Shown one piece after another: positions 16,506 through 51,129 of a stretch of 64,000 bases of DNA; the first letter of the stretch is position 1; each line of letters starts with the position of its first letter. A program made the translations under genes and the position numbers. This DNA is from Eledone cirrhosa. Lineage: Eukaryota. The notes under the pieces were generated by a model. The model saw nothing but the letters and a program-made list of their open reading frames with translations, ran no database searches and was not told the origin of the DNA. Location: positions 31,000,001 to 31,064,000 of the forward strand of contig OZ024745.1 of NCBI GenBank assembly GCA_964016885.1, given 5' to 3'.

Positions 16506-16581
16506 GAGAAAGAGAAAGAGAGAGAGAGAGAGTTGTCTATCCATCTAACTTTCTTTCTCTCTCTCTCTATCTATCTATCTA

Positions 16582-25028: not shown

Positions 25029-25279
25029 GTAAGCCAAATTTTATTTATATCCTCTTATTTACTTTCTCTAATTGTTTATTAAAACAATTTTTTCTTTCAA
25101 ATATTACATTTTCTCTCGATTTTTTTTTTAAATGCAAAACAAACATTTTTTAACGATGTTAGATAAATTTTGTTCTTTCGATTTATATACGTATATTAAA
25201 TAAATAATTGGTACAACTTATTTAGCGAATTAAATTCCTGCAGAACCATGAAAATAACTCGTTTGGGAGGTCATAATCT

Positions 25280-27132: not shown

Positions 27133-27540
27133 ATCATCATCATCATCATCATCATCGTTTAACGTCCATGTTCCACGCTTGCATGGGTTTGGACGGGAGT
27201 TTTCCCACTTGAGGCAAGAGTGGTTGTCATTGCTCGCATAGGACTGTCTGGCGGGTTTTCTACAGCTGGATGCCCTTCCTAACACCAACCACATTTACAG
27301 TGTGGGGCTGGGAGGTTTTTACCGTGTTGCCTACACGGCCACATTACAGCGTGGACTGTCTGGCGTGTTTTCTACAGCTGGATGCCCTTCCTAACACCAA
27401 CCACATTTACAGTGTGGGGCTGGGAGGTTTTTACCGTGTTGCCTACACGGCCACATTACAGCGTGGACTGTGTGTTTTTTTGTCGTGACACCTACACGAT
27501 CTCATTTGTTTTGGCCTGGATGTTGTGGCACCAACATAAC
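27133..27540 (-). mobile_element. RTE-LINE 3' tail / RTE-mobilised SINE with internal ~112-bp duplication
   Basis: (CAT)n + gtttaacgtcc..catgggtttggacggg and ttctacagctggatgcccttcctaacaccaacc match the reverse complement of 58700-58886. Confidence 0.75.
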
Positions 27541-27829
27541 TTTACATTGAAAGGGGCGGTGTGGATGGGGTGGGGGTGTATTTTGTTAGAGATGCCTAGA
27601 ATAACATAACAAATGTTTTAAATAAATAACATTACAAATGCCTCGGTAACACTACAAAGGATGATACAATGAATACAATTATTTGAGATGATACACTTAT
27701 TTGAGACCTGAGAGTACATAAAAAAAAAGTTTGTCTAATCCATACCATTAAGGAAAAGTATAAAAGAATATCTAAATTATAATTTTTTTCTCCCTCTTCA
27801 TTTCATAGTGAAACTACAAATTCTCCACC

Positions 27830-27879
27830 ATGAATGATATACCCAACAATAACTTAAGTATCTTGAAGACTTCAAACAG
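27830..27879 (+). CDS. TACC: TACC coding exon 1 (MNDIPNNNLSILKTSN; exon starts 27809)
   Basis: ttttttctccctcttcatttcatag| acceptor, ccaccATG, CAG|gtatgt donor; phase 2 matches the next exon. Confidence 0.7.
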
Positions 27880-30800
27880 GTATGTGTATTTAAATATTTC
27901 TAACATTGGCTCAATGCCAGCAATATGAAAGAAAGGAAAAGGTTGATTATATTGATCCTGGAAGGATAAAGACAGTTTACTTCGGCAGGATTTGAACTCA
28001 GGACTTTGAAATTCATAACTACTTGTTACAATCATGTGTAATTTAAACTGTATTTGATACAATCATCATCCTCTTATGTCCGTTTCTCCATGCTAGCATG
28101 TGTTGGATGGGTCCTTTCCAGCACAATTCAACTGTGAGCTTCAATGATTTGAGATCAGCTCTCACCATCTCTGCTTAGGTCTTCTTTGGCCTACTTCAAC
28201 TATAGCTCCCTTCCACTAGGATTTCTATGCACTTCTTCACCCAATGATCATCATCGGTTTGCATCACATGTCCATACCAGCACAGTCTTAACACAATATT
28301 TAACTCTTTTTTTTTTTTTTTCATTATACCTAACTGCCTGAAACTGCTCTTGGTTCTATAATACAAAATTGTTTGTAAAGTATTTATATTTATCTAAAAA
28401 CCTTCCAAAATGATTTTTATTAAGTTATGGTTAGTTATGAGAACATTCATTATATTAGTAAATCTCTCAAAATTATTAATTATTTGAAAGTTATAGATAG
28501 TCATTCATTAGAAATATGGTAACAAAGCAATTTGGATTAAAACACCAACAGAATCAATTTCCTTGATTAAAATGCACCAGCAATACATTGGGGGCCAAGT
28601 GCTTTGATTCTATTCTAGTCTTTAATCAAAAGCAAAAAAAAATAAAATATCCTCTTGTAATAGTTTGTTCTGTTTCAGTGGCATTGCAGTGCAGAGGGAA
28701 GTAGAAATATCACAGATTTGGCAACTAGATATCAAGTCTGTGGTCCTTAGTTGCTGTAAATACTTTCATATTTATATCTCTAATGAAAAGCACTGCCTCT
28801 TATTTTCAAATCATTTGGAAAATAGTCGAGAATTTGAGGGTTATTTGTGCGTCATTTCCTGCTGGTGTTATAAAAAATTCACCCAGTATAACCTGTAAAG
28901 TTGTTGGTGATAGGAAGGGCACCCAACTATAGAAAACCTGCCAAACAAAGGTTCAGAGGGGCTCTTCAGTTGTGTCAAAGGCATAACAACCTGCTTAGTG
29001 CTGATGCCACAATAAAATGCACATGGTGCACTCTGTAGCATGAAGGAATGTAAGTATGAAGTGGGTCTCTGGCCCATCTAAGCAGTCAGTAGCTCTAAGT
29101 ACTGGCTTGGTCTGTGATGACCCATTCAATCTTTGCTAGCAGGGAAAACAGACGTTCAATGAGGGTGATGAATGTCTTTGACTTTAGGTTAGATTTATTG
29201 TGTAAGATTCTAATCTTTGAGAAAATATTAAAATTTCTTTTTTCTTTACAAAGACTGAAGTGGTTAAATGACATTGTTTCAATGATTAATTATTATTAGT
29301 GTCAAAATTAAAACACAACTCATTATTACATATTCTCTTCATTAAACTGATTACCATTTGTTTTCAGGAATGATAATTTTAAAGTCCCATCTGTTCTCGG
29401 CTTATCAAAACCTGAGAAGGAACAAAGTCACCATCCTAACACTGTACCTCATAAGAAATCCCCTTGTTCTTCTCCAAGGGCTACCAATAATGAAAATGTG
29501 GACCCTAATAAGCAGCTGCCTAGAAGCACTTCAGAAGCACCTAATTTAATTGCAGATACACCTGGAAAACCAATCAATCTCCTCTGCAAACAGTTGTCAG
29601 CACTGGCACTGGTTACACCTGATGGAATGCCGATAAGTAATAAGAGTGACCAAGTAAAAGGTAAAAAAGTAAAACTTCCGTTTTCAGAACCTTTTAATGA
29701 TGGTAATCAATTTACTGTGGAAAATCTTTTTGGTAAAACTGCAGAAAATCCTTTTTGTAAAACCAAAGGAGGTAGCATAGATAAGACCAAGGAAAATAGC
29801 TTTGGTAAGATTGAGGAAAGTACCTTTGGTAAGACTGAGGAAATCTGCAGTAATTTTATCGGCACTCGTCGCAAGGCATTGATCATTACAGATGACGAGG
29901 AATTTTTCACTGATGCTGCAGAATATTTCAAAAGTGAAGACTTTGACAATGCCAATTTAAGTGAAGAGGATGCTTTTAAGTCTCTAGAATCATCTCCAAA
30001 AACTTCAAATATTGTAACCACTGATAAAACAAGCAATGATGCAGCTGAGAGAAAGTCAGAAAATGGTGATCCTGAGACTGATGATGACACACAGGTAGCA
30101 TTGACTCAGGAAAAGTTTTCTGAAGACAATATTCAGAAAGCTTTAGAAAATATGAGCTCGATATATAATCCAGATATTGCTGGAGACAATATCCAGAAGC
30201 CTGATATTCACAATATAGTTGACCATTCCAGGAAAAGCTATGATATCCGTAACTCTCCAGTTCCACAAGACTTTAATGAACCTGTTATCACATTCCAATG
30301 TGAGGAACAAATCCCAAATTCTCCAGTCCAATTGCAGAGAAAAGTCCTGGAACCTGTTGACCATTTCCAATGTAAGAAGCAGATCCCTAATTCACCAGCT
30401 CCACAAGAGAAAGTCGCTGACATTGTTGACCCTTTCCAGTGTAAGGGACAGATCTCTAATTCACCAGCTCCACAAGAGAAAGAAGTCGCTGATACTGTTG
30501 ACCCTTTCCAGTCTAAGAAACAGATCCCTAATGCACCAGCTCCACATGAGAAAGTCCCTGTTAATGTTGACCCGTTCCAATGTAAGAAACAGATCCTTAA
30601 TTCACCAGCTCCACAAGAGAAAGTTCCTGATACTGTTGAGCCTTTCCAGTGTAAGGGACAGATACCTAATTCACCGGCTCCACAAGAGAAGGTCCCTGAT
30701 GCCGTTGACTCTTTCCAATGTAAGAAACAGATCCCTAATTCACCAGCTCCACAAGAGAAAGAAGTCGCTGATACTGTTGACCCGTTCCAGTCTAAGAAAC

Positions 30801-33800
30801 AGATCCCTAATTCACCAGCCTCACAAGGGAAAGTCACTGGTGCTCTTGACCCTTTGCAATGTAAGAAACAGATCCCTAATTCACCAGCTTCACAAGAGAA
30901 AGTCGCTGATACTCTTGACCCTTTCCAGTGTAAGAAACAGATCCCTAATTCACCAGCTCCACAAGAGAAAGAGGTCACTGGCACTGTTGACCCTTTCCAG
31001 TGTAAGGGACAGATCCCTAATTCGCCAGCTCCACAAGGGAAAGTTCCTGATGCTGTTGACACTTTCCAGTGTAAGAAACAGATCCCTAATTCACCAGCTC
31101 CACAAGAAAAAGTTCCTGACACTGTTGACCCTTTCCAGTGTAAGAAACAGATCCCTAATTCAGCCCCACAAGAAAAAGTCACTGATACTGTTGGCCCTTT
31201 CCAATGTAAGAAACAGATCCCTAATTCACCAGCTCCACAAGAGAAAGAAGTCGCTGATGCTGTTGACCCGTTCCAGTCTAAGAAACAGATCCCTAATTCA
31301 CCAGCCTCACAAGGGAAAGTCACTGGTGCTCTTGACCCTTTGCAATGTAAGAAACAGATCCCTAATTCACCAGCTTCACAAGAGAAAGTCGCTGATACTG
31401 TTGACCCTTTCCAGTGTAAGAAACAGATCCCTAATTCACCAGCTCCACAAGAGAAAGAGGTCACTGGCACTGTTGACCCTTTCCAGTGTAAGGGACAGAT
31501 CCCTAATTCGCCAGCTCCACAAGGGAAAGTTCCTGATGTTGTTGACACTTTCCAGTGTAAGAAACAGATCCCTAATTCACCAGCTCCACAAGAAAAAGTT
31601 CCTGACACTGTTGACCCTTTCCAGTGGAAGAAACAGATCCCTAATTCAGCCCCACAAGAAAAAGTCACTGATACTGTTGGCCCTTTCCAATGTAAGAAAC
31701 AGATCCCTAATTCACCAGCTCCACAAGAGAAAGAAGTCGCTGATACTGTTGACCCGTTCCAGTCTAAGAAACAGATCCCTAATTCACCAGCCTCACAAGG
31801 GAAAGTCACTGGTGCTCTTGACCCTTTGCAATGTAAGAAACAGATCCCTAATTCACCAGCTCCACAAGAGAAAGAGGTCACTGGCACTGTTGACCCTTTC
31901 CAGTGTAAGGGACAGATCCTTAATTCACCAGCTCCACAAGGGAAAGTTCCTGATACTGTTGACCCTTTCCAATGTAAGGGACATATCCCTAATTCACCAG
32001 TTCTACAAGAGAAAGTCACTGATACTGTTGACCCTTTCCAATGTAAGGGACACATCCCTAATTCACCAGCTCCACCAGAGAAAGTCACTGATACTGTTGA
32101 CCCTTTACAATGTAAGAGACAGATCCCTAACTCACCATCCCCACAAGAAAAAGTCACTGATACTGTTGACCCTTTCCAATGTAAGGGACAGATCCCTAAT
32201 TCACCAGCTCCACAAGAGAAAGTCACTGATACTGTTGACCCTTTCCAGTGTAAGGGACAGATCCCTAATTCACCAGCTCCACAAGAGAAAGTCACTGATA
32301 CTGTTGACCCTTTCCAATGTAAGGGACAGATCCCTAATTCACCAGCCCCACAAGACAAAGTCACTGATACTGTTGACCCTTTCCAATGTAAGGGACAGAT
32401 CCCTAATTCACCAGCTCCACAAGAGAAAGTCACTGATACTGTTGACCCTTTCCAATGTAAGGGACAGATCCCTAATTCACCAGCCCCACAAGACAAAGTC
32501 ACTGATAATGTTGACCCTTTCCAATGTAAGGGACAGATCCCTAATTCACCAGCTCCACAAGAGAAAGACACTGATACTGTTGACCCTTTCCAGTGTAAGA
32601 AACAGATCCCTAATTCACCAGCTTCACAAGAGAAAGTCACTGATAATGTTGACCCTTTCCAGTGTAAGAAACAGATCCCTAATTCACCAGCTCCACAAGA
32701 GAAAGTCACTGATACTGTTGACCCTTTCCAATGTAAGGGACAGATCCCTAATTCACCAGCTCAAGAGAAAGTCACTGACACTGTTGACCCTTTCCAATGT
32801 GAGAAACAGATCCCTAATTCACCATCTCCACATGAGAAAGTCGCTGATACTGTTGACCCTTTCAAATGTAAGAAACAGATCCCTAATTCACCAGCCCCAC
32901 AAGAGAAAGTCACTGATACTCTTGACCCTTTCCAATGTAAGGGACAGATCCCTAATTCACCAGCCCCACAAGAGAAAGTCACTGACACTGTTGACCCTTT
33001 CCAGTGTAAGGGACAGATCCCTAATTCACCAGCCCCACAAGAGAAAGTCACTGATACTGTTGACCCTTTCCAGTGTAAGGGACAGATCCCTAATTCACCA
33101 GTCCCACAAGAGAAAGTCACTGACACTGTTGACCCTTTCCAGTGTAAGGGACAGATCCCTAATTCACCAGCCCCACAAGAGAAAGTCACTGATACTGTTG
33201 ACCCTTTCCAGTGTAAGGGACAGATCCCTAATTCACCAGCCCCACAAGAGAAAGTCACTGATACTGTTGACCCTTTCCATTGTAAGGGACAGATCCCTAA
33301 TTCACCGGCTCCTCAAGAGAAAGTCACTGATAATGTTGACCCTTTCCAATGTAAGAAACAGATCCCTAATTCACCAGTCCCACAAGAGAAAGTCAATGAT
33401 ACTGTTGACCCTTTCCAATGTAAGGGACAGATCCCTAATTCACCAGCCCCACAAGAGAAAGTCACTGATAATGTTGACCCTTTCCAGTGTAAGGGACAGA
33501 TCCCTAATTCACCAGTCCCACAAAAGAAAGTCACTGATACTTTTGACCCTTTCCAATGTAAGGGACAGATCCCTAATTCACCAGCCCCACAAGAGAAAGT
33601 CACTGACACTGTTGACCCTTTCCAGTGTAAGGGACAGATCCCTAATTCACCAGCCCCACAAGAGAAAGTCACTGACACTGTTGACCCTTTCCAGTGTAAG
33701 GGACAGATCCCTAATTCACCAGCCCCACAAGAGAAAGTCACTGATACTGTTGACCCTTTCCATTGTAAGGGACAGATCCCTAATTCACCAGCTCCTCAAG

Positions 33801-36800
33801 AGAAAGTCACTGATAATGTTGACCCTTTCCAATGTAAGAAACAGATCTTTAATTCACCAGTCCCACAAGAGAAAGTCACTGATACTGTTGACCCTTTCCA
33901 GTGTAAGGGACAGATTCCTAATTCACCAGCCCTACAAGAGAAAGTCACTGATACTGTTGACCCTTTCCAATGTAAGGGACAGATCCCTAATGCACCAGCC
34001 CCACAAGAGAAAGCCACTGATAATGTTGACCCTTTCCAGTGTAAGGGACAGATCCCTAATTCACCAGTCCCACAAAAGAAAGTCACTGATACTTTTGACC
34101 CTTTCCAATGTAAGGGACAGATCCCTAATTCACCAGCCCCACAAGAGAAAGTCACTGACACTGTTGACCCTTTCCAGTGTAAGGGACAGATCCCTAATTC
34201 ACCAGCCCCACAAGAGAAAGTCACTGACACTGTTGACCCTTTCCAGTGTAAGGGACAGATCCCTAATTCACCAGCCCCACAAGAGAAAGTCACTGATACT
34301 GTTGACCCTTTCCATTGTAAGGGACAGATCCCTAATTCACCAGCTCCTCAAGAGAAAGTCACTGATAATGTTGACCCTTTCCAATGTAAGAAACAGATCC
34401 CTAATTCACCAGTCCCACAAGAGAAAGTCACTGATACTGTTGACCCTTTCCAGTGTAAGGGACAGATCCCTAATTCACCAGCCCTACAAGAGAAAGTCAC
34501 TGATACTGTTGACCCTTTCCAATGTAAGGGACAGATCCCTAATTCACCAGCCCCACAAAAGAAAGTCACTGATACTTTTGACCCTTTCCAATGTAAGGGA
34601 CAGATCCCTAATTCACCAGCCCCACAAGAGAAAGTCACTGACACTGTTGACCCTTTCCAGTGTAAGGGACAGATCCCTAATTCACCAGCTCCACAAGAGA
34701 AAGTCACTGATAATGTCCCTTTCCAGTGTAAGAAACAGATCCCTAATTCACCAGTCCGACAAGAGAAAGTCACTGATACTGTTGACCCTTTCCAGTGTAA
34801 GGGACAGATCCCTAATTCACCAGCCCCACAAAAGAAAGTCACTGATACTGTTGACCCTTTCCAATGTAAGGGACAGATCCCTAATTCACCAGCGCCACAT
34901 GAGAAAGTCACTGATATTGTTGACCCTTTCCAGTGTACGGGACATATCCCTAATTCACCAGCCCCACAAGAGAAAGTCACTGATACTGTTGACCCTTTCC
35001 AATGTAAGGGACAGATCCCTAATTCACCAGCCCCACCAGAGAAAGTCACTGATACTGTTGACCCTTTCCAATGTAAGAAACAGATCCCTAATTCACCAGC
35101 TCCACAAGAGAAAGTCACTGATACTGTTGACCCTTTCCAATGTAAGAAACAGATCCCTAATTCACCAGCTCCACAAGAGAAAGTCACTGATACTGTTGAC
35201 CCTTTCCAGTGTAAGGGACAGATCCCTAATTCACCAGCCCTGCAAGAGAAAGTCACTGATAAAGTTGACCCTTTCCAATGTAAGAAACAGATCCCTAATT
35301 CACCAGCCCCACAAGAGAAAGTCACTGATAATGTTGACCCTTTCCAATGTAAGAAACAGATCCCTAATTCACCAGCCCCACAAGAGAAAGTCACTGATAA
35401 TGTTGACCCTTTCCAATGTAAGGGACAGATCCCTAATTCACCAGCCCCACAAGAGAAAGTAACTGATACTGTTGATCCTTTCCAGTGTAAGGGACAGATC
35501 CCTAATTCACCAGCTCTACAAGAGAAAGTCACTGATACTGTTGACCCTTTCCAGTGTAAGGGACAGATCCCTAATTCACCAGCCCTACAAGAGAAAGTCA
35601 CTGATACTGTTGACCCTTTCCAATGTAAGGGACAGATCCCTAATTCACCAGCCCCACAAAAGAAAGTCACTGATACTTTTGACCCTTTCCAATGTAAGGG
35701 ACAGATCCCTAATTCACCAGCCCCACAAGAGAAAGTCACTGACACTGTTGACCCTTTCCAGTGTAAGGGACAGATCCCTAATTCACCAGCTCCACAAGAG
35801 AAAGTCACTGATAATGTCCCTTTCCAGTGTAAGAAACAGATCCCTAATTCACCAGTCCGACAAGAGAAAGTCACTGATACTGTTGACCCTTTCCAGTGTA
35901 AGGGACAGATCCCTAATTCACCAGCCCCACAAAAGAAAGTCACTGATACTGTTGACCCTTTCCAATGTAAGGGACAGATCCCTAATTCACCAGCGCCACA
36001 TGAGAAAGTCACTGATATTGTTGACCCTTTCCAGTGTACGGGACATATCCCTAATTCACCAGCCCCACAAGAGAAAGTCACTGATACTGTTGACCCTTTC
36101 CAATGTAAGGGACAGATCCCTAATTCACCAGCCCCACCAGAGAAAGTCACTGATACTGTTGACCCTTTCCAATGTAAGAAACAGATCCCTAATTCACCAG
36201 CTCCACAAGAGAAAGTCACTGATACTGTTGACCCTTTCCAATGTAAGAAACAGATCCCTAATTCACCAGCTCCACAAGAGAAAGTCACTGATACTGTTGA
36301 CCCTTTCCAGTGTAAGGGACAGATCCCTAATTCACCAGCCCCGCAAGAGAAAGTCACTGATAAAGTTGACCCTTTCCAATGTAAGAAACAGATCCCTAAT
36401 TCACCAGCCCCACAAGAGAAAGTCACTGATAATGTTGACCCTTTCCAATGTAAGAAACAGATCCCTAATTCACCAGCCCCACAAGAGAAAGTCACTGATA
36501 ATGTTGACCCTTTCCAATGTAAGGGACAGATCCCTAATTCACCAGCCCCACAAGAGAAAGTAACTGATACTGTTGATCCTTTCCAGTGTAAGGGACAGAT
36601 CCCTAATTCACCAGCTCTACAAGAGAAAGTCACTGATACTGTTGACCCTTTCCAGTGTAAGGGACAGATCCCTAATTCACCAGCCCCGCAAGAGAAAGTC
36701 ACTGATAAAGTTGACCCTTTCCAATGTAAGAAACAGATCCCTAATTCACCAGCCCCACAAGAGAAAGTCACTGATAATGTTGACCCTTTCCAATGTAAGA

Positions 36801-39800
36801 AACAGATCCCTAATTCACCAGCCCCACAAGAGAAAGTCACTGATAATGTTGACCCTTTCCAATGTAAGGGACAGATCCCTAATTCACCAGCCCCACAAGA
36901 GAAAGTAACTGATACTGTTGATCCTTTCCAGTGTAAGGGACAGATCCCTAATTCACCAGCTCTACAAGAGAAAGTCACTGATACTGTTGACCCTTTCCAA
37001 TGTAAGGGACATATCCCTAATTCACCAGCCCCACAAGAGAAAGTCACTGACACTGTTGACCCTTTCCAGTGTAAGGGACAGATCCCTAATTCACCAGCTC
37101 CACAAGAGAAAGTCACTGATAATGTCCCTTTCCAATGTAAGGGACAGATCCCTAATTCATCAGCCCCACAAGAGAAAGTAACTGATACTGTTGATCCTTT
37201 CCAGTGTAAGGGACAGATCCCTAATTCACCAACCCCACAAGAGAAAGTCACTGATACTGTTGACCCTTTCCAATGTAAGAAACAGATCCCTAATTCACCA
37301 GCCCCACAAGAGAAAGTCACTGATACTGTTGACCCTTTCCAATGCAAGGCACAGATCCCTAATTCACCAGCCCCACAAGAGAAAGTCACTGATACTGTTG
37401 ACTCTTCCCATTGTAAAAAACAGATCCCTAATTCACCAGCCCCACAAGAGAAAGTCACTGATACTGTTGACCCTTCCCATTGTAAAAAACAGATCCCTAA
37501 TTCACCAGCCCCACAAGAGAAAGTCACTGATACTGTTGACCCTTCCCATTGTAAAAAACAGATCCCTAATTCACCAGCCCCACAAGAGAAAGTCACTGAT
37601 ACTGTTGACCCTTCCCATTGTAAAAAACAGATCCCTAATTCACCAGCTCAGGAAAGGAAGTCATCCAATGATACTACTGATTCTTTCAAATATAAAAACG
37701 TTATCCCTAATTCTCCAAATGCTCTACAGAGTAATGTTTTCCCCTCTGTATTGTCAACCAATGAAGAGTGTGTGGATATTACCAATAACACTGAAAATTC
37801 TAAGATGGGCAGCAAAGCTGTTTCCACCATGGTTAACAAGGAATCAGAACAACAGAATTCTAACTTGTCATCTTCTGAAGGAGATAAACAGCAAGAGGTG
37901 ACCAAGTCATTACAGCTCCTTGACACCTGTGAACCTATCATTTCTGGCTTGACTACTGAAACTCAAAACATGTCACCTGAGCAGTTAGGATTTAAATCTG
38001 CGCAGAAAGGTATTTTGTCTTTCTTTTTTATTTATTTATGTTAATGGTTTTCTTTATTTTAAAGGCATGTGGTTAAGGTGGTGGACTCACAATCATAAGT
38101 TTGTGTGTTCGATTCCTGGACTCATTGCATTGTTCTTGAACCAGGTGCTTTATATCACATTACTTTCCATAAGACTGGTCCCTGTCGTTAAACCATTAGC
38201 ATTTACATTACTCTATATATACTATTATATTTTCACAGTAAACATTTTACCTCATATAATTATCTCGCATAATATCGAATCTATGAGAATGATATTCATT
38301 TTGAGAACAATACCTTAACATCGGTATGGCCAGTTTGAACAGAAAGAGTTGAGAATTCTGGCCTGATATGGGCGGTTTAAATGCTAAAGGATTAAACCAC
38401 TCGAAAAACCTACTTATGTGATGCAATTTCATTGTAATCGATTTAAACCTACATAGGTGTGAGCTGTAACTTTATATGGTGTACTAGGTATATTTTATCA
38501 TGGCAACAACACTAGAGAAGTTGTCATGTCCTCAGCAGGTCCAATGTTCCTCTCAACCTTGCACTATCTTTATTTGAATGCCAACCACTTCTATCATGGC
38601 ACCTGTACTATTGAGGTTGTCTTGAATCTTACAAGACTAAAGAGTCTTCACTGCTCACCATTATCTCCATACAGTGTGGTCAAGAGGGTGAATAGAAGAG
38701 AGTAATGACAGAACTAAGGTGAGTGAGGGAAGAAAGCAAAAGTATGAGAAAGAGAGTTGGTGTTTGATATGAGTAGGAGAAACAATAATGACAAACTAGT
38801 GGAAGAATCATTTGTATTCTGCAATAATTTTCTTCAACCATTTAAAAAAATTTATATTGTAGGATTTACCTGTGATGACGATGATTGGGAGTTGTTAAAC
38901 AGCAATAAAACTATTGTAAGTATATTTTTGTCACTCTAATGGATAGAGCGTAAAGGTAGGGTGGTGGGCTTGTAATCTGGAGTTCAATTTTCAGACAAGG
39001 CAGTGTGTTGTATCATTAAAGCACTTGATTTCACGGTGTTCCAGTTCATTCAACTGCTATGACACTGATGACAAGCTGTATCAGCCTTTCCCTTGGACAA
39101 CATCATACATAGTATATAGTATATTGAGTGTATATATAATGTATGTGTTGCCATGTCACTAGTGCAAAACTATCAACTTTTGCCTTATGTCCAACATTGG
39201 TGGCATGAAGAGGTGGAAACTGGAATGCATGGGTCACCACTGGGCTTGTACCTTGGAGAACTTTCCAGCTGCAACACCTCTGATCCAAAGGGACCTTTGA
39301 CATTTTAACCCTTTTGTTACCATATTTCTAATGAAATACATTGCTCAATTAATTTTGAAAATAATTTAAAATTTGGTTGAATTTGAATAAAATAATTAAC
39401 TTGTTTGTTATTAAGCTGGTGACTGAATAAAAATTTCTTACATAAAATTATGATGGAAGGTTTTAATAAAATATAAACACTCTAAAACAAGTAGTTTTGT
39501 ATAACAGAATCAGCTAGTTTTGGGCAGGATGGTATCGGAAGGATTACCATGATATCTAAAATAATGGCCTGTGAATTTATGAATTGCTAAGATACCATTT
39601 TAAACTTTATACTCGTGTCATAAGAGCGCCAACGAATCTGTCAATGGATTCAGTAAAGTCCTTGCAATACAATCCACAATCATAACAATATGAGCTGACT
39701 TCTTTGTTTTATGCTAACTTAATGCGGTTTTTATTACAAAAAGAAAATGCTTTAGAGAAGTAGCAGTTTAACTCTTAGACAATTTGGTACTGCACTTGTT

Positions 39801-42800
39801 TTGTTTATATCATAGTATTGTGTTCTCTAGCTAATAAAGTCTTTTCTCTGCACCATCTCTGTGTAAAATACATTATTAGTTGATAAAATTTTCAGTTTTG
39901 TGGGAAATGTGATGGGCTTACTTTGGCATGTTATGTGCTCCCTTTGAAACTATGATGGGGAATTTGTTGGAGATAAGGTTTTCACAGGTGGTCTCCAGAT
40001 GAAAACAGACAACAACTTGGCCCCTAGCAAAACGTCAAACAAAACCTCATGCAATTATGTACTTGGAATAACTATCAACTTGCTGTCTTCACCTGGCAAA
40101 TAGAATTATTTACTGTTATAAAGTTTGAGATAACATAGTAAATTTGAACATCTAATATATCTATGACAAAATGTATAATTTGTCTATTATTTATTATTTC
40201 CAGATGAATGCTTCTCGGTTATGTCGAGAAAGTCTGTATGTAAAATTTGATCCACTTCTTGAATTGAATAATACACTTGATTTTAACACAAGTAAGTTGT
40301 TTTATATTTCAGGTGTTTTTCATTTCTTAGACTGAATAACATCAAATATCAACATTAGTCTGTATTTCCACTCAAACCACAGAGATTCAATGTTCACATT
40401 AGCAACTCACTTTTTAAAATATATTTGTTGTGATACATCATCGTTTAACATCCATGCTAGCCATTTAATGGATTAAACATGTCATGTTATGAGGCTAACC
40501 AGGTCAAGTGACCACATCTTGCTTATACAGATCTGTTTTAGTTTGGTTTTCCATGGCTAGATTCCAACCACATTACAGTATGTACTGGGTGCTTTTTGTC
40601 ATAGCACCATCACTACCATTTTACAGGGTGGGCTGGGTGCTTTTTATTGTGGCACTACTACAAACACTTCACAAGCTGGGCTGGGTGCTTTTTGTCAAGG
40701 CACCAGTATGACCACCTTACATGGTGGATTGGGTGCATTTTTGTTGTGGCACCATTAAATAATGATATTGTGTCTCCAGACACATGTCTAATTACATGGA
40801 GAGTTGTCAAATCTCAAATATACTTCATACAAATGTTTTTAGTTTATCAGATTTGAGTTAATTTCATGACACACATAAATATTAACACACCTAGAGATGA
40901 TTAGCAGCACTGGTCTGAAGGCTGGGAACCATTGACAATTGCACTAATTCTCATCTATATGATGCTGTATGTCCATGATTCATATTTGGAAATAAGTGGC
41001 GTTGGTGGGTCCCAAATCCTCATCTGACCATTATTCGGAAGCTGGCTACTGAACTGCAGTTCATCTGCCTTCACAAAGATGAAGCTGTTGGCCACTTGAA
41101 AGGTTGTCACCTAAGTAACTAGAGAGTCCCATATACCCAGTTTCAAAGTCAGTGTTCCTTCTGGACATATAGCCAACTAAGGCTAACAAGCTCTACTCGT
41201 TCTTTTTTTTACACACTATTGGATGGTCATTGACTCACCTGAGCTATTCTGTTCTTTGGTGGGGTTTTTTTTACCCTGTAGGGTGTCCAAAAATCTCCTT
41301 CCTCATTAATGGAATACTAACCATTGACCTTACCAGCATATAACCATCTGTGGGTCTCTTATTTAACTGCTAGTTGGAGCAGGACTCTCTGTTCAGACAG
41401 AATAACTTAACTCTATCATTACCATATTTCTATGGTAAATCTGCTTGTGACTTGCAATTAATTTTGAAAATAATACAGAATTGACAGGGACTTGGTAATA
41501 TATCTAAACTTTCTCATGTTAATATTTGAAATTGTTAGAATAATGTGAATTCATTTTTGTTTTCTTTATTTTAGATAGAAATAGAAATGTGAGTAAGCAG
41601 CCTAAATTAGAGAAAATTAAAAGGTAAGCTTCTTCTGAAATAATATTTTTGTAGTTAGTCACTGAGATAGCTGAAATAAGTGCTGACCTCTGTGGTTCAA
41701 TGCAAAGGTTTCATAGTAGTTAGTCACTGAGATATAAGAAATAAGTGCTGTCCTGTGTGGTTCAATACACTGGTTTCACAGCTAACCACAATCAGCTTTG
41801 CTAAAGTTTTGGAGTTTGTTTTGACTTTGTTTTTATCATCTTCATCGTTTTTATGTTCGTTTTTCCATGGTTGGATGGGTCCTTTGAGTGAACCAGAAAC
41901 CACACAGGGTTTGCATGGTAAACTCTAAGAACACCACGGCCTTGCCTACACTTAAGCAAGAATAAAATGTTTAATGGCTGCTTTTCTCTGATTTCAGTCC
42001 AAACTCTTCACCTGATCTAATAATGATGGATTCACCAACACGTAAATCAATTTACCAAAAAGCTGCCAACATGCAGAAGGCAAACAGCTGCATCAGAAAC
42101 TATGTTGATGACATTTTATCACTGACCCCTGAAAAGGACAATGTAAGATTTGGTGGAATTTTTATTTTGTTTTGCATACATTTAAATATTTAGATGATTA
42201 TTTTACACCCACTTCCCATCTCACCATGAGTTGGATGGTTTCCATAGTTAAGCACTTTCTATGAATGGAATGGGTTGGATGATTTGGCACAGTCTAATTC
42301 AAGATGGTTCAAATACTATGCTTAGATCGTATGTTGTATATAGGGTGCATTTTATTGTGGCACCAGCACTACCACTTTACAGTGTGTATTGGGTGCATTT
42401 TATTGTGACACCAGCACTACCACTTTACAGTGTGTATTGGGTGCATTTTATTGTGGCACCAGCACTACCACTTTACAGTGTGTATTGGGTGCATTTTATT
42501 GTGACACCAGCACTACCACTTTACAGTGTGTATTGGGTGCATTTTATTGTGACACCAGCACTACCACTTTACAGTGTGTATTGGGTGCATTTTATTGTGG
42601 CACCAGCACTACCACTTTACAGTGTGTATTGGGTGCATTTTATTGTGGCACCAGCACTACCACTTTACAGTGTGTATTGGGTGCATTTTATTGTGGCACC
42701 AGCACTACCACTTTACAGTGTGTATTGGGTGCATTTTATTGTGGCACCAGCACTACCACTTTACAGTGTGTATTGGGTGCATTTTATTGTGACACCAGCA

Positions 42801-45800
42801 CTACCACTTTACAGTGTGTATTGGGTGCATTTTATTGTGACACCAGCACTACCACTTTACAGTGTGTATTGGGTGCATTTTATTGTGGCACCAGCACTAC
42901 CACTTTACAGTGTGTATTGGGTGCATTTTATTGTGGCACCAGCACTACCACTTTACAGTGTGTATTGGGTGCATTTTATTGTGGCACCAGCACTACCACT
43001 TTACAGTGTGTATTGGGTGCATTTTATTGTGGCACCAGCACTACCACTTTACAGTGTGTATTGGGTGCATTTTATTGTGGCACCAGCACTACCACTTTAC
43101 AGTGTGTATTGGGTGCATTTTATTGTGGCACCAGCACTACCACTTTACAGTGTGTATTGGGTGCATTTTATTGTGGCACCAGCACTACCACTTTACAGTG
43201 TGTATTGGGTGCATTTTATTGTGACACCAGCACTACCACTTTACAGTGTGTATTGGGTGCATTTTATTGTGGCACCAGCACTACCACTTTACAGTGTGTA
43301 TTGGGTGCATTTTATTGTGGCACCAGCACTACCACTTTACAGTGTGTATTGGGTGCATTTTATTGTGGCACCAGCACTAACACCAGAAAGTACCAGTGCC
43401 ATAAGAGGTACCCAGTATATTCTGTAGAGTGATTGGCATTAGTGAGGGCATACTCTATTTTTTTTAGTATACCTTTGTCATTTAGACTTATCTGAAGTGA
43501 AGTCTTATTTGTTGTGGTTAATTTTAAGAAAAGACAAACACCATATAAGTATAACAATTCTGTCTCTATACAACAAAACTTCACCTCACAAAAGGAAAAT
43601 GTGATTGCTTCAAATTGTAAATAAAATCGATGATTAGCGTGTTCAATGAGGCCTGTGCGTTGTTTCACTTCTATTTATGTTGAGATGTCTCTCTCTCTCT
43701 ATTTAGGTGAATGCAGTATTTTTTGGTACACCTCTGCCACAGAAAAAGAATAGCGAAATTGTTCAAGTGAGTTCTTTAATTTTTATACCTTAACATTTAA
43801 ACTCAATGATCTTTTAATTTTTCTCTTTCTCTTTTTCACTTTATCTTTCATTCTTACTTTCTCTCTCTCACTCTCTCTCATACATTGTATTCCCCTGCAA
43901 TCCACTCAGGTATTGAAGTACACCGAGGAAGACTGGCTGAAGATGAAACAGAATATAGAGCTGGAATATCAGAACCGTTTGATGTCAGTCAGTCAAAACT
44001 TTACCCGGAAGATGTCTGAACTAAAACAGGAGCTCGAGAAGGCATTGAGTGAAAAGGAAACTGAATTGGAACAAATGAAGGAGAATTTGGGTCAAAGACA
44101 AACAGAGAAAGAAGCTATGCAAAAGAAGGCAGCTGAATTAACGTAAGTAATAGAATTGATACCAAACCAATTCTGGAAGAATTGAAGGGATGCTGTAGTG
44201 ACATAATGTTTCTTAGGCATTTTGTTTAAACTTAGTGGAGCCCATCCTCTTTCCAGATCAGAATATAGCCAGTTTCTTTCAGAGTAAGGCGGGAGAGTGA
44301 TAGTAAAAGAAGTGAGAAAGAAGATAGAGGAAGAATCGACCCTAGTGCTGGACTAGGCCTTTTTTTTTTATCAACTGCTAAAGGATGAAAGGCAAAGTTA
44401 ACCTCAGCAGGACTTGAACTCAGAATGAAGAGAACCAGAACAAATACTGCAAAACATTCTGACGTTCTGATGATTCTGCTAATTTGCCACCTTTGTTTCT
44501 ATGATACATAGTTGTTTATTTACCTAAAAACCTTCCTATCATAATTGTTTCTGCTTTTGGCACAAGGCCAGCAATTACCCAGTGCATTACTGGTACTTTA
44601 TTTTATCGACCCCGTAAGGATGAAAGGCTAAGTTAACTTCAGCGGGATTTGAACTCAGAATGGCAAGGCCTGTAACTCTATGCGTCAAAGTATGGTGTCC
44701 GACCCTCTACCGATACTGCCAATCCACCGCCCAATCATAATGTCATGTAAGAACTTTTGTTTAGTTATGTTCCGAATATGAACCTTTAATAATAGGTAAG
44801 TTATTTTACTAAATATCTCCAAATTTTTGGTTATTTTTTTTAAATGATTTGAAAATCATGAGCAGAGTATTTTATTAACAGAATGGTTAAAATTTACACA
44901 GGTACAAGTTGTATAGCTCCAGGTGAAGTGGCATCAGCAAACTTTTTGTTAAATGCATTTGTCATGGTCACCGTTTTTTTTGGTGAATACTTAAAACTAC
45001 ATTATTCAGTATGTCCTCTCTGTAAAGAGGGCAGGGTTAAATATGAGGGAGATTTGGCTGCTATATCTAGATGGCTCCCACTACAAAGAGTTGGTAGCAA
45101 TGGTGATGATTACAGTAAGTTACTACTGATCAGTTTTATTTGAATATAATATTTAGCTCAGACATTTTGGGGTTCTCTATTTTTCATTCATTTCATTTTA
45201 CGTCCGCTTTTTCCCTGCTTGCAAGGGTGGGACGGGAACTGATTCTGGCTTGATTTCTACAGCTGGATACCCTTCCTAACACCAACCTCATTTACAGTGA
45301 GTGCTGGGTGCTTTTTTGCTGTGGTACCTGCATGACCACTTTGCAGTGGAATGATATGGACCCCAGTCCCTATCATCTCATTTCTACAGCTGAGTAAACT
45401 GGAGCAATGTAAAATAAAGTGTCTTGCTCAAGGAAACAACACATCACCCGGTCTGAGAATTGAACTCCCAACCTTTCGATTGCAAGGCCAATGCTCTAAC
45501 CATTAAGCCATGTGCTTCTGTTTCTCTATGTTCACAACAAAATGGATTTCTGTTAAACACATGCCAAGTACCAGTGTTAAACTAGGGAAAAGATTAGTCA
45601 GCCATCCAAATACCAGTTGGTGGTATTATATATATCATTGTCGTTTTAACATCCACTTTCCTTGCTAGCAACCCTCCTGGTCACATACCTTAAATGAGTG
45701 ATGTTAGGAGAGCAGGCATAAAATGATGATAATCATGTACATAAGGAGTTTGCTTTGCAACTAGTATTTTGGTTTCAGTTCCACTGGTACTTTGGTGTGT

Positions 45801-48800
45801 CTTCTACCATTGTTTTATGTTGACCCAAACCTTGGATGGATTGAATCTGTAAACTGGGAAATTTAGCCATGTCATACAAGATCATTGATTGTATCTGAGG
45901 TTGTGTTGAAACCGGTAGTGTTGAGAATGGTTTGAATTAGTTTCATGATTTTATGTTAAAGAGGTTTATTTTACATTAAGCAATTGTTTTTGAATACCAA
46001 ACATATTTTCTTTTTTCAACAGAAATCTTTTGGATGAATATCTCGTATTGATAAACCATCTATGTGGTATGTATCTGTTTCTACACCACTAATTGAATGC
46101 ATGTGAGTGCTCAGGGTGTTGGATAAAACTAAACTAAAGGTTTTAAAAGACCAGGCAAGAGGAGAGCTGGAGACTAGCTGTTGAAGGAAAGCTAGCTTAA
46201 CACAAAATAAAAAGAACACAATGACAACACTGGAAGAGGGTGCCTTCAAATGTAGTCACTCCTGTGTGGATCTTTACAGCCACAGCAGATGTTGATCTAC
46301 CAGCAAGACAATGCAAAACACTCATGGCACAGATCCAGTGAGGTTTCTTTTCCTCACTAAACAATTTTTTAATGAGAACAGGTTTTTTTGTAAATACAAT
46401 CTTTAAATTAAATAATCTATAATGCATTAACCTCTATTTTTCGTTTGTTGTCTAAAAATATAAACACAGACATGTCTGTGTGATTAAGGAGCTTGCTTCA
46501 CTGCCACATAGCAGCACCTTGAGCAAGTGTCTCCTACTCTAGTCTCAGACTGACTATTGCCTTGTGAGTAAAATTTGGTAGACAGAAACTGTGTGGAAAT
46601 TTTTCGTATATATCTATTTACCTTTACTGTTTGTTTATTTCTTATAACTTAGCAGTTCAACAAAAAGATAATGATAAAATAAGTACCAGACTTTAAAAAA
46701 ATAAATACTCGGGTAGATCAACTAATTCCGATTTATGCAATGCTCCAGCATGGCCTCGGTCTTATGACTGAAACAAATAAAATAATCTTTACAATATGCT
46801 AGTTTGAAAACTATAATAGTCAGTGTAAAAAGTTTGAAAATGTAAAATGCACCTTTTTTAAAAAAAGAAAAAGAATTTATAATAAAAGACCAATAAGTTT
46901 CAAAAACCCTGTACAATGTGGTAGAAAAATACAAAGGATGACAAATAAAACAACAAAATAATATTTTATCCAATATATTTCAAATGTGAAGCAGAAATGA
47001 TTCAAAACAAAAATTTGTAATATTGCTGATAATGTTTACAAGAGTGAAGACCCTATTAATGTAACCCTCTCATGTCCATTACAATATCAACATATTAAAA
47101 TATCATCTGAATAAGTTTTCATTTTCAATTCCAGCTGATAAAAAGAAGTGCGTAGATGACTATACAAAAGATATTGATGGAACTCACAAGGAAGTAGAAG
47201 CTGTAAGTATTAAAAACTTACTGAATTTATTAATTAAATGTTAAATTTTCTTTTATTTCTTCATCAGTAAATGAGTCAGAAAGCCACTTGAGAATGTAGA
47301 TAGAACTATTTTTGTTGTTTTTTAATTAGAAGCCTTTTCACTGAAAAGAAAAAGAGTGTTAGCACTTCATCATCACCATTTAATGTTCATTTTCCATGCT
47401 TCCATGGGTTAGACAGGTCCTCTCCAGTACATCTCTCCACTTGTTTCTTTCCTGTCTCATCTCCTCTGTGGTATAGTCAGTTTCATTGGGTCATCTCTCA
47501 ACAAGTTGTTATAATTTCACTTTATTTCATTTCAATATTTTCAGGTCAAAGAAGAATTACAGACTGTTCAGAAAGCATATTCACATTTACATCAACATTT
47601 TGAAAAGGCTAAGTTAATAATTGAGGGTCTTAAAAAGGCAAGTTGGAATTTTTTTTTTCTAAAATCAATTTTAACTGAGTGCAAATGTAATTATCGAGTC
47701 AGCAAATTGGCAGTCATTAGAACTTCAGATAGAATGCTTTGCAGTATTTGTTTTGGCTCCCTGCATTCTCTGAGTTCAAATCCCTGCAAGGTCAACTCTA
47801 CCTTTCATCCTTTCAAGGTTGATAAAAATAAAGTACCAGTCTAATACTGGGGTTGTTTCTTCTTCTCTATCTCTTTCTCACTTCCTTTCTATCATTCTCT
47901 CTTCTCGGGAAGAAATCGGCTGTTTAGACATCAAGAGGATGTGCTCTGTTGGGTTTTAAAATTGCTGAAAGAAATGTCATTGTCATTACAGCACCCTTAC
48001 GACTCCATCAGGAGTTACAAACTCATACATATGTAATATAATATATATATATATATATATATATAAATTAGGATTGGTGCTCTGAAATAGCGATGTATAC
48101 ATGAATGTATGTATGTATAGTATATTACCAAATATACTATACATGTATTCATGTATACATTGCTATTTCAGAGCACCAATCCTAATTTTTTATTTTTGCT
48201 GGACCGGCAATTGCTCTGTATAATCAGTTCCTGATTATTACTGGAATTCTATAAGAATCCAGCCTCTATAATTTTCGGCAAAGGTCGGTGAGTGCTAGGC
48301 TCTGATGAACACCAACAGTGTGAAACAGATGTCAGCTTATCTCTCTTCCTTTGCTGAAAAAAGTCACTACTTTAAAAAATACAATTGTAATTATCACTAA
48401 ATGTTTTCTTTCGTTTAGAATGAAGAAACATTAAAGGGAAAATTTACGGAGATGGCAACCAAAATAAAAGACGATCAAAAAGCTTATGCCATACTGAAGA
48501 GAGAAAGACAAGAAATTGTAACTAAGTAAGTCGCCATTGACCCTTTAGTATTTAAACCGGCTGTAACTGGCCATTCATACTGATGTTAAAATAAATATCA
48601 AAATCTCATAGATTCAGTAAATATAGTGTAATGTAAATGTTAAGGGGTTAAGCCAATATGGAGGATGCAGAGAAATTAAGCCAATGTGCCACAACCATTC
48701 GTTTTGTTTTTTTTTACCTATTTAGTCAGGGGAGATAAGGGCTGTGCCCATGACCCTTTTCAGGGTCTTGGGGGGGGGGGGGGTATTCTCAAACTGGAGA

Positions 48801-51129
48801 TATGTTCTGGATATTTGAAACAGTGATTCTGCTATTTCAAGCCCTCCATGACAGATAGGAGGAAGGTATTGTCAAACCAGAGGTCGGTTCTGGATACTTG
48901 CAACAGAGGAGTTCTGCTCTCCTCCATTGTTGGTGACTGGAGCAGTCACCAACAATGGAGACCTGACCCCGGAGATCAACTGCAGATGTGGTCTGGCCAC
49001 TGGGGTCATGTATTCACTATCTTCTGGAAGATGAAGCTCTGTATCTACAACGCGTTGGTCCTCTCCAATCTCCTCTATGGAACAGAAACATGAACCTCAC
49101 AAAGACCCTGGCAAAGAGGATTGATGGCTTCAATAGTAGAGTCCTGAAAACCATCGAGAACATCAGATAGTGCCACCACGTTTCCAACAAAGGGCTGCAT
49201 GTGTACCCGCAACCTCACAGCAATCCATGCAGGCACTGATACAGACATGTCCTCCACCTCCCACCAGATCATCCTACTGGGGCTTTACTCACATTCAATA
49301 TAGCAGTTGTGGAGGCCCCACAGCAGCCCCCTGCACCAGAAGAGTGGATGTGATTAAGGTAGCTCTCCAGAGGCTTGATATCACTATGGAGGATGCAGAG
49401 AGGTCGGCACAGGAAGGACCACCAGTGATGGAGGGCAGCTGGTGGATTTGGTCGGCTCTACACACAATGAGCTCTCTGCAATCACTGAACTAGGATGACC
49501 TCAATCCCATTGAGCAAGAAGGAGGGCTCTACTAAAGGCACCCAAAAGCCAAGTGGTGACAAAGATGATGATTCATTGCCCTCGTACCTTAATTATACTG
49601 TCCACAACAGGTGTTTGATATTTAATTTTCTCAATATCACTAAACCACAAAGCATGGAAACTAATGGTTTTTCTTGGGTATTTATCATCCTCCTTGTTTA
49701 ACGTCCACTTTCCACGCTAGCATGGGTTATTTATATTATTTATTATAATTGATAAATACAAAAGTTTTATAGTACTAAAAATATAAAGATTTTAAATATA
49801 TTGAATGTTTTCTTTTTTTTTAATTATAATTTTCAGCCTTGAAAACGAATTACATGCCTTGAAGAAGAAATTAACAATTGATACTTCGTGTCTTGAAGCT
49901 AAGAACAAACGCAAAGATATGAAGATTGCTGAGCAAGAAAACGAACTCGAATTAAAGGTAAACATTTTGAGTGGTTGTTTTGACAGACTTGACAGTCATA
50001 TCTCCCTCAAATAAGACTAGTCTTTAAAAAAAAGTAGAGATATAGTGCATTCCTTCCATTTACGTGGAGGTTCAAATCAAAGTCTCTCATAGAGACCCTG
50101 TTTTTGTGCTACTACCTCAACTCTCTAATGAATAATAAGTGGGGTGTGTACAGTGCCTTGGTGAAAACTAAATTCCTCACTAAAAATAGAAGTTAAGGAC
50201 TGAAACACTTGCTTGATGAGGGGTTCTTCTCTGAAGACCTGCTGTCCAGCTCTCCTGAGACTTTCTTTGCTACAAATTTTATTCTGCCCTGTCTTAACCT
50301 TTTTGATACCAACTCACCCAAAACCACTTCTGGTTCTATGAACCCAAACCTCTCATTTTAAAAGATTCCTATTTAAACTAAACACTTCCAACACAACTTG
50401 ATAAGAACCTTTTGTTAAATTAGGTTAGGGTGTTGGTCTCACAATCGTAAGTTTGGTTGTCAGACTGGGCAGCACATTGTGTCCGTGAGCAAGGTGCTTC
50501 ATTCCACATTCCTGCAGTTCAACAGCAGCGGGTTAACCTTGTTATGAATTGGTGTCCCATGTAAGGGAGATCTTTGTACCCTCGATTACTCTCAAATATC
50601 ACCTGAAATTGGGATACAGTGCAGCCTAATGAACTTCTGGGTTCAAGAAAGACTTACTGTTTATACTTGAATATAAGCCAAGGAATATGTGAACCCCGCC
50701 ACATCCCCCAAAAAAACAATGGTAAAAATGGAGAGGGGGGGGGGGGGTTATATTCACCATCTACACATGTTGATTAGCTGCTTCAGCTTATAAATGGGGA
50801 TTGGATATATGCCCATTTCTCCAATATAAAATGAGTCAGCTTTTTTCAAGTATATACAGTAAATGCAAGCCCTTTAATCAGGCAGTCAACTGTTTCTGTC
50901 AGCAACACTTTATTTTTTCTTTCTCTTTTTTCACTCATTAGACTGTGCCCATGCTGGAACACTATTGATAAATATTACAACTCTGTTCTGTATTGCTTAT
51001 CACAAATTCTGTACAACTATTAAAATATATATATTTTTTTTTTTTTTTTGTTTCTTTCAGAAAAAACAAATAATAGAACTCACTAAAATATGTGATGATT
51101 TGATGGACAAAGTAGGAGACACTCAGTAA
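27830..51129 (+). CDS. TACC: TACC-family centrosome/spindle protein, spliced CDS join(27830-27879,29368-38009,38863-38915,40204-40291,41575-41623,41998-42142,43707-43766,43910-44142,46023-46066,47135-47202,47545-47637,48419-48525,49837-49957,51061-51129); 9822 nt, ~3273 aa
   Basis: All exons have pyrimidine-AG acceptors and GT donors (one GC), and the phases chain without a stop. The protein contains RESLYVKFDPLL (TACC3-type Aurora-A/clathrin motif) and a C-terminal coiled coil ending ...IEGLKK|NEETLK...ELTKICDDLMDKVGDTQ*, the TACC domain signature. The start is in a Kozak-like context, ccaccATG. Confidence 0.9.
29368..38009 (+). CDS. TACC: TACC giant exon (8642 nt) containing the 23-aa repeat array
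   Basis: tttgttttcag| acceptor, in frame with the 2848-aa ORF; AAAG|gtattt donor after GFKSAQK; no stop across the array. Confidence 0.88.
30350..37650 (+). repeat. Coding minisatellite, 69-bp unit (variants 66/72 bp), about 105-110 copies
   Basis: Unit gtcactgatactgttgaccctttccaRtgtaagRRacagatccctaattcaccagcYccacaagagaaa = VTDTVDPFQCK(G/K)QIPNSPAPQEK. Confidence 0.97.
38863..38915 (+). CDS. TACC: TACC exon (GFTCDDDDWELLNSNKTI)
   Basis: ttgtag| ... |gtaagt, phase 1 to 0. Confidence 0.8.
40204..40291 (+). CDS. TACC: TACC exon with RESLYVKFDPLL motif
   Basis: tttccag| ... |gtaagt; conserved TACC motif. Confidence 0.92.
41575..41623 (+). CDS. TACC: TACC exon (NRNRNVSKQPKLEKIK)
   Basis: Long pyrimidine tract + ttag| ... 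AAG|gtaagc, phase 1 to 2. Confidence 0.75.
41998..42142 (+). CDS. TACC: TACC exon (SPNSSPDLIMMDSPTRK...TPEKDN)
   Basis: tttcag| ... |gtaaga, phase 2 to 0, open frame. Confidence 0.8.
42343..43379. repeat. 48-bp intronic minisatellite, ~21.6 copies
   Basis: gggtgcattttattgtgRcaccagcactaccactttacagtgtgtatt, nearly invariant. Confidence 0.97.
43707..43766 (+). CDS. TACC: TACC exon (VNAVFFGTPLPQKKNSEIVQ)
   Basis: tttag| ... |gtgagt, phase 0 to 0. Confidence 0.75.
43910..44142 (+). CDS. TACC: TACC exon, start of coiled coil (VLKYTEEDWLKMKQ...)
   Basis: ctcag| ... |gtaagt; heptad-rich acidic ORF. Confidence 0.9.
44340..44732 (-). mobile_element. Two tRNA-derived SINE copies (intronic)
   Basis: Reverse complement of the 14651/17758 family. 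Confidence 0.75.
45380..45515 (-). mobile_element. tRNA-derived SINE, second family (ccttgagcaagacactt core)
   Basis: Minus strand A-box tggcttaatgg, B-box gagttcaattc; related copies at ~38065, ~38935, ~50420. Confidence 0.6.
46023..46066 (+). CDS. TACC: TACC-domain exon (NLLDEYLVLINHLC)
   Basis: ttttttcaacag| ... G|gtatgt, phase 2 to 1. Confidence 0.8.
47135..47202 (+). CDS. TACC: TACC-domain exon (ADKKKCVDDYTKDIDGTHKEVEA)
   Basis: ttccag| ... |gtaagt, phase 1 to 0. Confidence 0.82.
47545..47637 (+). CDS. TACC: TACC-domain exon (VKEELQTVQKAYSHLHQHFEKAKLIIEGLKK), GC donor
   Basis: ttttcag| ... AAG|gcaagt; matches the TACC-domain L..VE..FSDL...YE..K..IEG.KK segment. Confidence 0.88.
48296..48339 (+). 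ncRNA. Minimal type I hammerhead ribozyme in a TACC intron (sense), part of Penelope-like relic 48066-48370
   Basis: TAGGCT-CTGATGA-ACAC(caaca)GTGT-GAAA-C(AGAT)G-TC-AGCTTA; preceded by inverted repeat 48066-48187 and (TA)n. Confidence 0.72.
48419..48525 (+). CDS. TACC: TACC-domain exon (NEETLKGKFTEMATKIKDDQKAYAILKRERQEIVT)
   Basis: tttag| ... |gtaagt; NEE.LK motif. Confidence 0.9.
48880..49540 (+). mobile_element. Degenerate RTE-like LINE 3' fragment
   Basis: KLCIYNALVLSNLLYGTET*.LTK..KRIDGF..RVLKTI.NIR remnant, with stops and frameshifts. Confidence 0.7.
49837..49957 (+). CDS. TACC: TACC-domain exon (LENELHALKKK...ENELELK)
   Basis: ttttcag| ... AAG|gtaaac, phase 2 to 0. Confidence 0.88.
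51061..51129 (+). CDS. TACC: TACC terminal exon (KKQIIELTKICDDLMDKVGDTQ*)
   Basis: Poly-T tract + cag|; conserved ELTKICDEL C-terminus; TAA at 51127-51129. Confidence 0.93.
   Translation, partial: KKQIIELTKICDDLMDKVGDTQ

Follow-up and report, generated by a model that had tools for sequence, protein, structure and literature searches.

A giant TACC exon of the octopod Eledone cirrhosa predicted to encode 107 tandem copies of a conserved family motif

The 64,000-nt window of the Eledone cirrhosa genome analysed here (positions 31,000,001–31,064,000, within a 3.0-Gb assembly) contains a TACC gene in which a single exon carries a tandem array of 107 units, each consisting of the motif [DN]PF-x7-NSP and a linker. 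Judged from the sequence, the expansion is real, coding and extreme, and it concerns a known TACC motif. The array probably results from tolerated growth of a coding minisatellite in a spacer that is predicted to be disordered; the spindle arm of the protein, in exons 4–14, is left intact. Variation of repeat number in the N-termini of TACC proteins is already known, and the Eledone array is the most extreme amplification of the motif in our survey. The exon and its repeats are located as follows.

29368..38009, + strand: giant exon 2, 8642 nt, entered in phase 2 and left in phase 1
30275..37660, + strand: array of 107 units of 66, 69 or 72 bp, each the TACC [DN]PF-x7-NSP motif plus linker
29782..29843, + strand: 24-bp (8-aa) tandem repeat inside exon 2, found by repeat scan

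Exon 2 has AG and GT borders, is open in one frame and has a length that leaves 2 on division by three; the coordinates of the 8.6-kb exon in the initial annotation hold. The array spans about 2460 amino acids (aa), 75% of the predicted 3273-aa protein, in agreement with the three quarters first estimated. Its 107 unit anchors define 106 intervals, 92 of 23 aa, eight of 24 aa and six of 22 aa (69, 72 and 66 bp), the three lengths originally noted, and the program TRF finds a period of 69 with 106.5 copies and 91% matches. Read in frame, the array has 104 NSP, 110 SP and 109 cysteines, close to the roughly 100 that had been proposed for SP and Cys, but DPF occurs only 88 times; likewise, the figure of more than 100 modules is right for the units and too high for the strict form DPF-x3-[KG]-x3-NSP, which is found 83 times. 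Higher-order nested blocks of 486, 552, 1101 and 345 bp are present, and 824 bp of the 1101-bp duplication are exactly identical; such nested, near-exact block duplications suggest recent unequal exchange. With its tandem units, in-frame length variants and nested duplications the array qualifies as a coding minisatellite (variable number tandem repeat). DNA of the unit gave 53 matches in the genome, all at this locus and none elsewhere (one candidate region scored), and a mobile or dispersed repeat was therefore rejected. A match of the repeat to Pfam Toxin_6 (E 7e-4, below the cut-off, nine residues) was rejected as chance.

That the assembly has turned a much shorter repeat into an array of this length is hardly credible. 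The 824-bp exact duplicate at an offset of 1101 bp could point in that direction, and so could the word counts in two of the three runs examined, which are 0.59–0.69 of those assembled. However, the array contains 2643 distinct 31-mers over 7356 positions, with graded variants, and twelve exact-match contigs (of 24 shown, runs X1–X3) lie at 0.56–1.06 of the assembled depth, corresponding to about 63–108 units; this estimate is rough, since depth does not equal copy number and the sequenced sample may be that of the assembly itself. A much shorter array in the raw reads had been named at the outset as a possible objection; the read depth excludes a very short array.

The unit was compared with a motif profile built from 71 instances in non-cephalopod TACCs. 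One Eledone unit scores 22.5 bits, a value reached by none of 2000 shuffles, nor by any of 2000 shuffles in which DPF and SP, the letters that had selected the instances, were kept fixed (maximum 14.8 bits). The family survey consisted of the best 150 of 462 representative hits, taken as TACC by E < 5e-12 and not confirmed singly, 111 of them at least 500 aa long. The motif is present in 85 of these 111 TACC-like hits; 26 have none, 75 have one to three, 105 fall within 0–4 and the maximum is 16, compared with 84 matches by the same pattern in Eledone, which supports the earlier proposal of a lineage-specific amplification of a motif from the TACC N-terminus. Across the 150 hits the motif starts with NPF 127 times and with DPF 84 times; downstream of [DN]PF a K, a hydrophobic residue and an N are favoured, and conserved letters reach ten residues past DPF. 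The motif is probably the counterpart of the SDP/SPAZ repeats of vertebrate TACCs. A literature search found no assigned partner for the motif, although an earlier description of the motif or a partner may have been missed, and a search on TACC in octopus or cephalopods gave nothing relevant.

Amplification of the same motif recurs in the family, with tandem units of 19, 20 and 23 aa in P0089 (13.5 x 19 aa), P0091 and P0107, in up to 16 copies, and units of 102–108 aa in 3.6–5 copies in the salmonid TACC3 proteins P0007 and P0019, but all these arrays have at least six times fewer copies than that of Eledone. The Ser/Pro-rich repeats of vertebrate TACC N-termini, which also vary in number and lie in a large N-terminal exon, are few compared with the 107 units found here; reported cases are the SPAZ motifs of TACC1 (PMC8665927), an indel polymorphism in the 12-aa repeats of human TACC3 exon 4, and a 24-aa repeat of variable number in mouse TACC3 (PMC1175095).

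The initial annotation stressed that the main frame is open and the other frames interrupted, which is true but by itself weak, as two further frames, one forward and one reverse, show no more than four stops in 2451 codons. An intronic 48-bp array likewise has a stop-free frame, and since other frames and this array are nearly or fully open, the case for coding rests on the spectrum of variants and on homology. Two 48-bp arrays are located in introns of the gene, a minisatellite of 22 copies with 98% matches and one frame open by chance in intron 6 (42335–43383), and a degenerate one in intron 4 (40585–40757). The 106 intervals show 77 types of substitution, of which none creates a stop where 3.6 were expected (P 0.0075), 26 are synonymous (19.1 expected, P 0.012) and 51 are non-synonymous. 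When variants confined to six edge intervals are left out, 64 types remain, with 20 synonymous (P 0.11) and no stops (P 0.021), and a separate count on 90 of the 92 69-bp units gives 74 types, again with no stops (P 0.011) and with P 0.08 for synonymous changes. The internal indels are of five types, perhaps from four events, and all are of 3 nt; the first interval of the array has a 2+1 insertion. Stop avoidance and 3-nt indels span units 3–99. The reading frame is thus protected, but the majority of amino-acid changes are allowed, so that the amino-acid constraint is weak, and protein-level selection on the motif core is weak as well.

The gene model comprises 14 exons at 27830–51129 on the + strand, with a coding sequence of 9822 nt for 3273 aa and one terminal stop; exon borders were chosen by eye and then phase-checked. 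The other exons are the following.

27830..27879, + strand: coding exon 1, beginning with ATG and ending in phase 2, with an N-terminus alignable to octopod TACC
38863..38915, + strand: exon 3, beginning with GA in phase 1 and in alignment with other TACCs
40204..40291, + strand: exon 4, with an Aurora A-type serine and FDPLL, equivalent to the clathrin-interaction region of TACC3
41575..41623, 41998..42142 and 43707..43766, + strand: exons 5–7, from the gene model and homology to octopod TACC
43910..44142, 46023..46066, 47135..47202, 47545..47637, 48419..48525, 49837..49957 and 51061..51129, + strand: exons 8–14, TACC coiled-coil domain and stop, from the gene model

A GC donor at 47637 follows exon 11, the sole intron of this kind in the model. 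By homology the gene is an octopod TACC, the nearest proteins being those of Octopus sinensis, O. bimaculoides and Argonauta hians. The last 379 aa (exons 3–14) show 63–70% identity to the octopod orthologues P0001, P0070 and P0002 over about 374 aa, and the first 230–310 aa (exon 1 and the 5' part of exon 2) 44–47% identity to all three. The last 120 aa of exon 2, just before exon 3, align weakly to Argonauta (score reached by 17 of 2000 shuffles); with the Octopus proteins, where 741 and 535 of 2000 shuffles reach the score, there is no alignment. With exons scanned singly, TACC_C (PF05010) matches exon 11 (E 0.006) and exon 12 (E 0.03) below the cut-off, and the orthologues P0001 and P0002 pass it with 91 and 85 bits against 29.9. 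Exon 4 reads RESLYVKFDPLL; its Aurora A-type serine and FDPLL align with vertebrate TACC3, and the match to PF25777 (Aurora-A_bind_TACC3) is weak and below the cut-off (E 0.12). In a 12-row tree the four octopod proteins group at 100/100 on a long branch of 1.7 changes per column, and in the same alignment the C-terminal identity of Eledone to the three others is 61–67%. Database names differ from this assignment, P0001 being called 'leucine-rich repeat-containing protein' and P0002 'serine/arginine repetitive matrix protein 2-like', and both pass TACC_C. By eye, the octopod proteins seen are without KG-x-Y-x-F-D, a stretch that many TACCs from elsewhere carry ahead of the motif. No second TACC paralogue was found in the genome with four queries of low sensitivity, as judged from exon 8 of the Eledone gene itself, which was the best match in one query and scored just E 0.28; a TACC family search of the genome gave no match.

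Measured between two conserved anchors, the spacer has 2708 aa in Eledone, against 1578 aa for Argonauta, 1282 aa for O. sinensis and 738 aa for O. bimaculoides in database models with possibly collapsed repeats. The Argonauta spacer contains about 65 copies of an 11-aa unit and that of O. sinensis a repeat of about 230 aa present four times, and DPF, NPF and the intact motif are completely missing from TACC of all three species. Towards the spacer's end, the two Octopus species retain three NS[PI] modules in degenerate form. The 230-aa repeat of O. sinensis holds a degenerate module with 33–37% identity over 30–52 aa, and the Argonauta unit aligns weakly to the Eledone unit, with composition correction off. 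A first impression that the octopod arrays are wholly unrelated was softened by these weak alignments.

According to the initial annotation exon 2 cannot be skipped in frame. Skipping of the whole exon does shift the frame, with a stop at codon 21, but the exon also has four donor-like sites from which the array could be dropped in frame.

29660, 29702, 29804 and 29828, + strand: four phase-1 donor-like sites 5' of the array, from a matrix scan of exon 2

Joining of any of these to exon 3 is predicted to give in-frame, array-less forms of 490–546 aa, and the argument that the array is unskippable and hence translated is therefore incomplete. Their scores are 5.6–6.3, against 4.8–10.0 for the gene's own donors when left out in turn, in a matrix built from 13 sites of the gene. 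Residue 2916, a Met with which exon 4 opens, could also serve as the start of a short form. The giant form might thus be minor or stage-specific, with most mRNA leaving exon 2 before the array or starting downstream of it to give an ordinary TACC of 360–550 aa, as human TACC1 is reported to have long and short isoforms with or without the SPAZ motifs (PMC8665927). We regard this as improbable. Stop avoidance and 3-nt indels along units 3–99 indicate an array that is read in frame throughout its length, the database models of the three other octopods retain a long middle, the modelled donor at 38009 follows the segment weakly aligned to Argonauta, and the site matrix is built on 13 donors. Of the 64 joints for contigs of four runs over 27500–30260, the 15 listed do not include 27879 to 29368; runs X1–X3 cover intron and exon alike, and run X4, of unrecorded kind, reaches into exon 2 in parts and into words of the array with a different depth pattern and was not taken as evidence in either direction.

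Inside the array, Cys-Lys codons spell T|GTAAG 93 times, forming cryptic donor-like sites. At 24 of these all nine letters agree with the modelled exon 6 donor, and TGC, a synonymous codon that would abolish the site, occurs twice against 97 times for the alternative. All 93 would yield TGA on joining to exon 3, whereas exon 5 would give Tyr and exon 10 Ser. Branch-point, pyrimidine and YAG patterns occur 38 times, and an acceptor-like CAG is seen one base before T|GTAAG at 33 places. With these donor-like and acceptor-like patterns the giant form likely needs protection of the kind given to long exons by RBMX. The ultra-long exons protected by RBMX (PMC11446547) are reported to have, like exon 2, many internal splice-like sites whose use would harm the gene; in Eledone, unlike there, the sites multiplied along with the unit. 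An Rfam scan of the window gave no match.

The array has 17% Pro, 4% Cys, 4% aromatic residues and an Arg fraction of 0.002, a net charge of -0.016 per residue and a FoldIndex of -0.068, and is predicted to be disordered, as first suggested. Six units folded without alignment gave an uninformative pLDDT of 40.6, a PDB sequence search with two units found no match, and the best Atlas score of 0.83 is a lead at most. P-x-S-P is present in 98 units, a full Cdk site in two only, and a motif scan of the array found no SxIP, clathrin box, FxDxF or RxxS sites. The other octopod spacers carry -0.10 to -0.12 charges per residue, and by calculation one phosphate per unit would shift the array to about -0.10.

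In the explanation that we prefer, the array is a coding minisatellite that probably grew by unequal crossing-over, and its location in a spacer predicted to be disordered, with little constraint on length, is the likely reason why it is tolerated. In favour of this are the different lengths and fillers of the spacer in the four octopods, the young nested blocks, the variable repeats reported for TACC3, the protected frame with its weak amino-acid constraint, and the tandem arrays of 18 of the 111 TACC-like hits, whose units are without the motif in 12 cases. The C-terminal 380 residues would do the spindle work, with phosphorylation by Aurora A and binding of clathrin and ch-TOG, while the array would be carried as a proline-rich, near-neutral tail of about 2,450 residues that proline-directed kinases would phosphorylate in mitosis; selection would act mainly on the frame and weakly on the motif. 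From homology we infer ch-TOG and clathrin binding and a spindle or centrosome localisation for the Eledone protein, which resembles TACC3, maskin and D-TACC in its C-terminal coiled coil, Aurora A-type serine, FDPLL and long acidic/Pro/Ser N-terminal region with the [DN]PF-x7/8-xSP motif, and differs in its copy number, the long octopod branch and a spacer that is near neutral and not acidic. In human TACC3 the residues equivalent to the exon 4 serine and FDPLL are reported to bind the clathrin ankle, and residues 1–499 to be dispensable for spindle localisation (PMC3734082).

Several points weigh against mere tolerance. An insertion of 2,450 residues with 93 cryptic donors should cost something, which pure tolerance fails to explain. 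By its profile score the unit is homologous to a conserved TACC motif, and hence is not arbitrary sequence. Among the 18 tandem arrays of the TACC-like hits, the motif is present in six of the units against 2.5 expected (P 0.003, with related rows counted as independent). Finally, the motif core uses fewer of its possible non-synonymous types than the linker, namely 23 of 86 compared with 28 of 65 (P 0.027, or P 0.10 when edge variants are left out). An alternative is a selected copy number, in which about 100 motifs would make a multivalent, phospho-switched scaffold that enlarges or tunes a liquid-like TACC network at the spindle poles, perhaps through many docking sites for a single conserved partner. 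The presence of the motif in most TACC-like hits, its recurrent and enriched amplification, the better conservation of the core and the P-x-S-P of 98 units, whose phosphorylation would give the charge of the other octopod spacers, are in line with this, as are reports that fly TACC forms a liquid-like centrosome scaffold and that the mouse TACC3 N-terminus phase-separates in vitro (PMC11804907); Xenopus TACC3 is reported to be phosphorylated at several sites in meiosis (PMC12270485). However, the intact motif is lost in three other octopods, the enrichment treats related proteins as independent, and the difference between core and linker is not significant without the edge variants. Moreover, two motifs within 40 aa are already present in 31 of the 111 hits, and such close pairs could seed unequal crossing-over without selection. 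The array is almost free of Arg and has few aromatic residues, and scaffold assembly is reported to depend on a stereospecific TACC–clathrin contact (PMC11804907). A multivalent phospho-switch or a condensate, as first proposed, would be compatible with the data, and we consider selection for copy number possible but unlikely.

DPF binds the AP-2 alpha ear, and endocytic accessory proteins such as Eps15 carry DPF arrays. The initial annotation raised the idea that the DPF copies bind AP-2 and couple the spindle to the endocytic machinery; this is not borne out and is now very unlikely. With 88 DPF in a predicted disordered chain, as in arrays of the Eps15 type, avidity for AP-2 could arise as a side effect. 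However, DPF in Eledone is one spelling of a longer motif that starts more often with NPF, the conservation continues to the K, the hydrophobic residue and the NSP downstream, and the absence of DPF from all three other octopods indicates that it is not conserved as such. The established contact with clathrin, reported for TACC3 to involve pS558 and the dileucine (PMC3734082), is intact in exon 4.

As a speculation that we hold to be rather doubtful, [DN]PF-x7-NSP may be an ancient docking-plus-phosphorylation motif of TACC proteins, the number of copies determining how large the TACC scaffold at the spindle pole becomes or which material state it takes, and Eledone may run about 100 copies with a built-in safety, since every cryptic donor of the array would lead to a stop at exon 3. 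In Bora an aromatic anchor, F103, is reported nine residues before the proline-directed serine S112 (PMC12953601), and as a lead, the Bora-like arrangement of the motif could act on Aurora A.

Upstream of the gene, the region 24900–25030 may hold a promoter and a non-coding first exon, with TGCGCATG, TTTGAA in reverse and AG|GTAAG as a donor-like site; these may be NRF1 and CHR cell-cycle elements. Further upstream, at about 21370–23990, three near-identical copies of a 400–600-bp element are seen by eye. Downstream of TACC, a 1031-aa open frame at 55485–58577 (+ strand) with endonuclease, reverse transcriptase and PHD-finger matches belongs to an element of the long interspersed nuclear element (LINE) type. 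Other tandem arrays in the window are located at 16566–17112 (67 bp x 8.2) and 54218–55203 (416 bp x 2.4).

As the most extreme amplification seen of a motif common to most TACCs, the array could serve as a high-avidity natural bait for the partner of the motif. The 8.6-kb exon with 93 built-in donor-like sites offers a clean test of the protection of long exons against cryptic splicing outside vertebrates. Four octopods with spacers of 740–2,700 residues and three repeat types in an apparently single-copy mitotic gene would make it possible to test whether the TACC scaffold depends on spacer length, on charge or on motif content.

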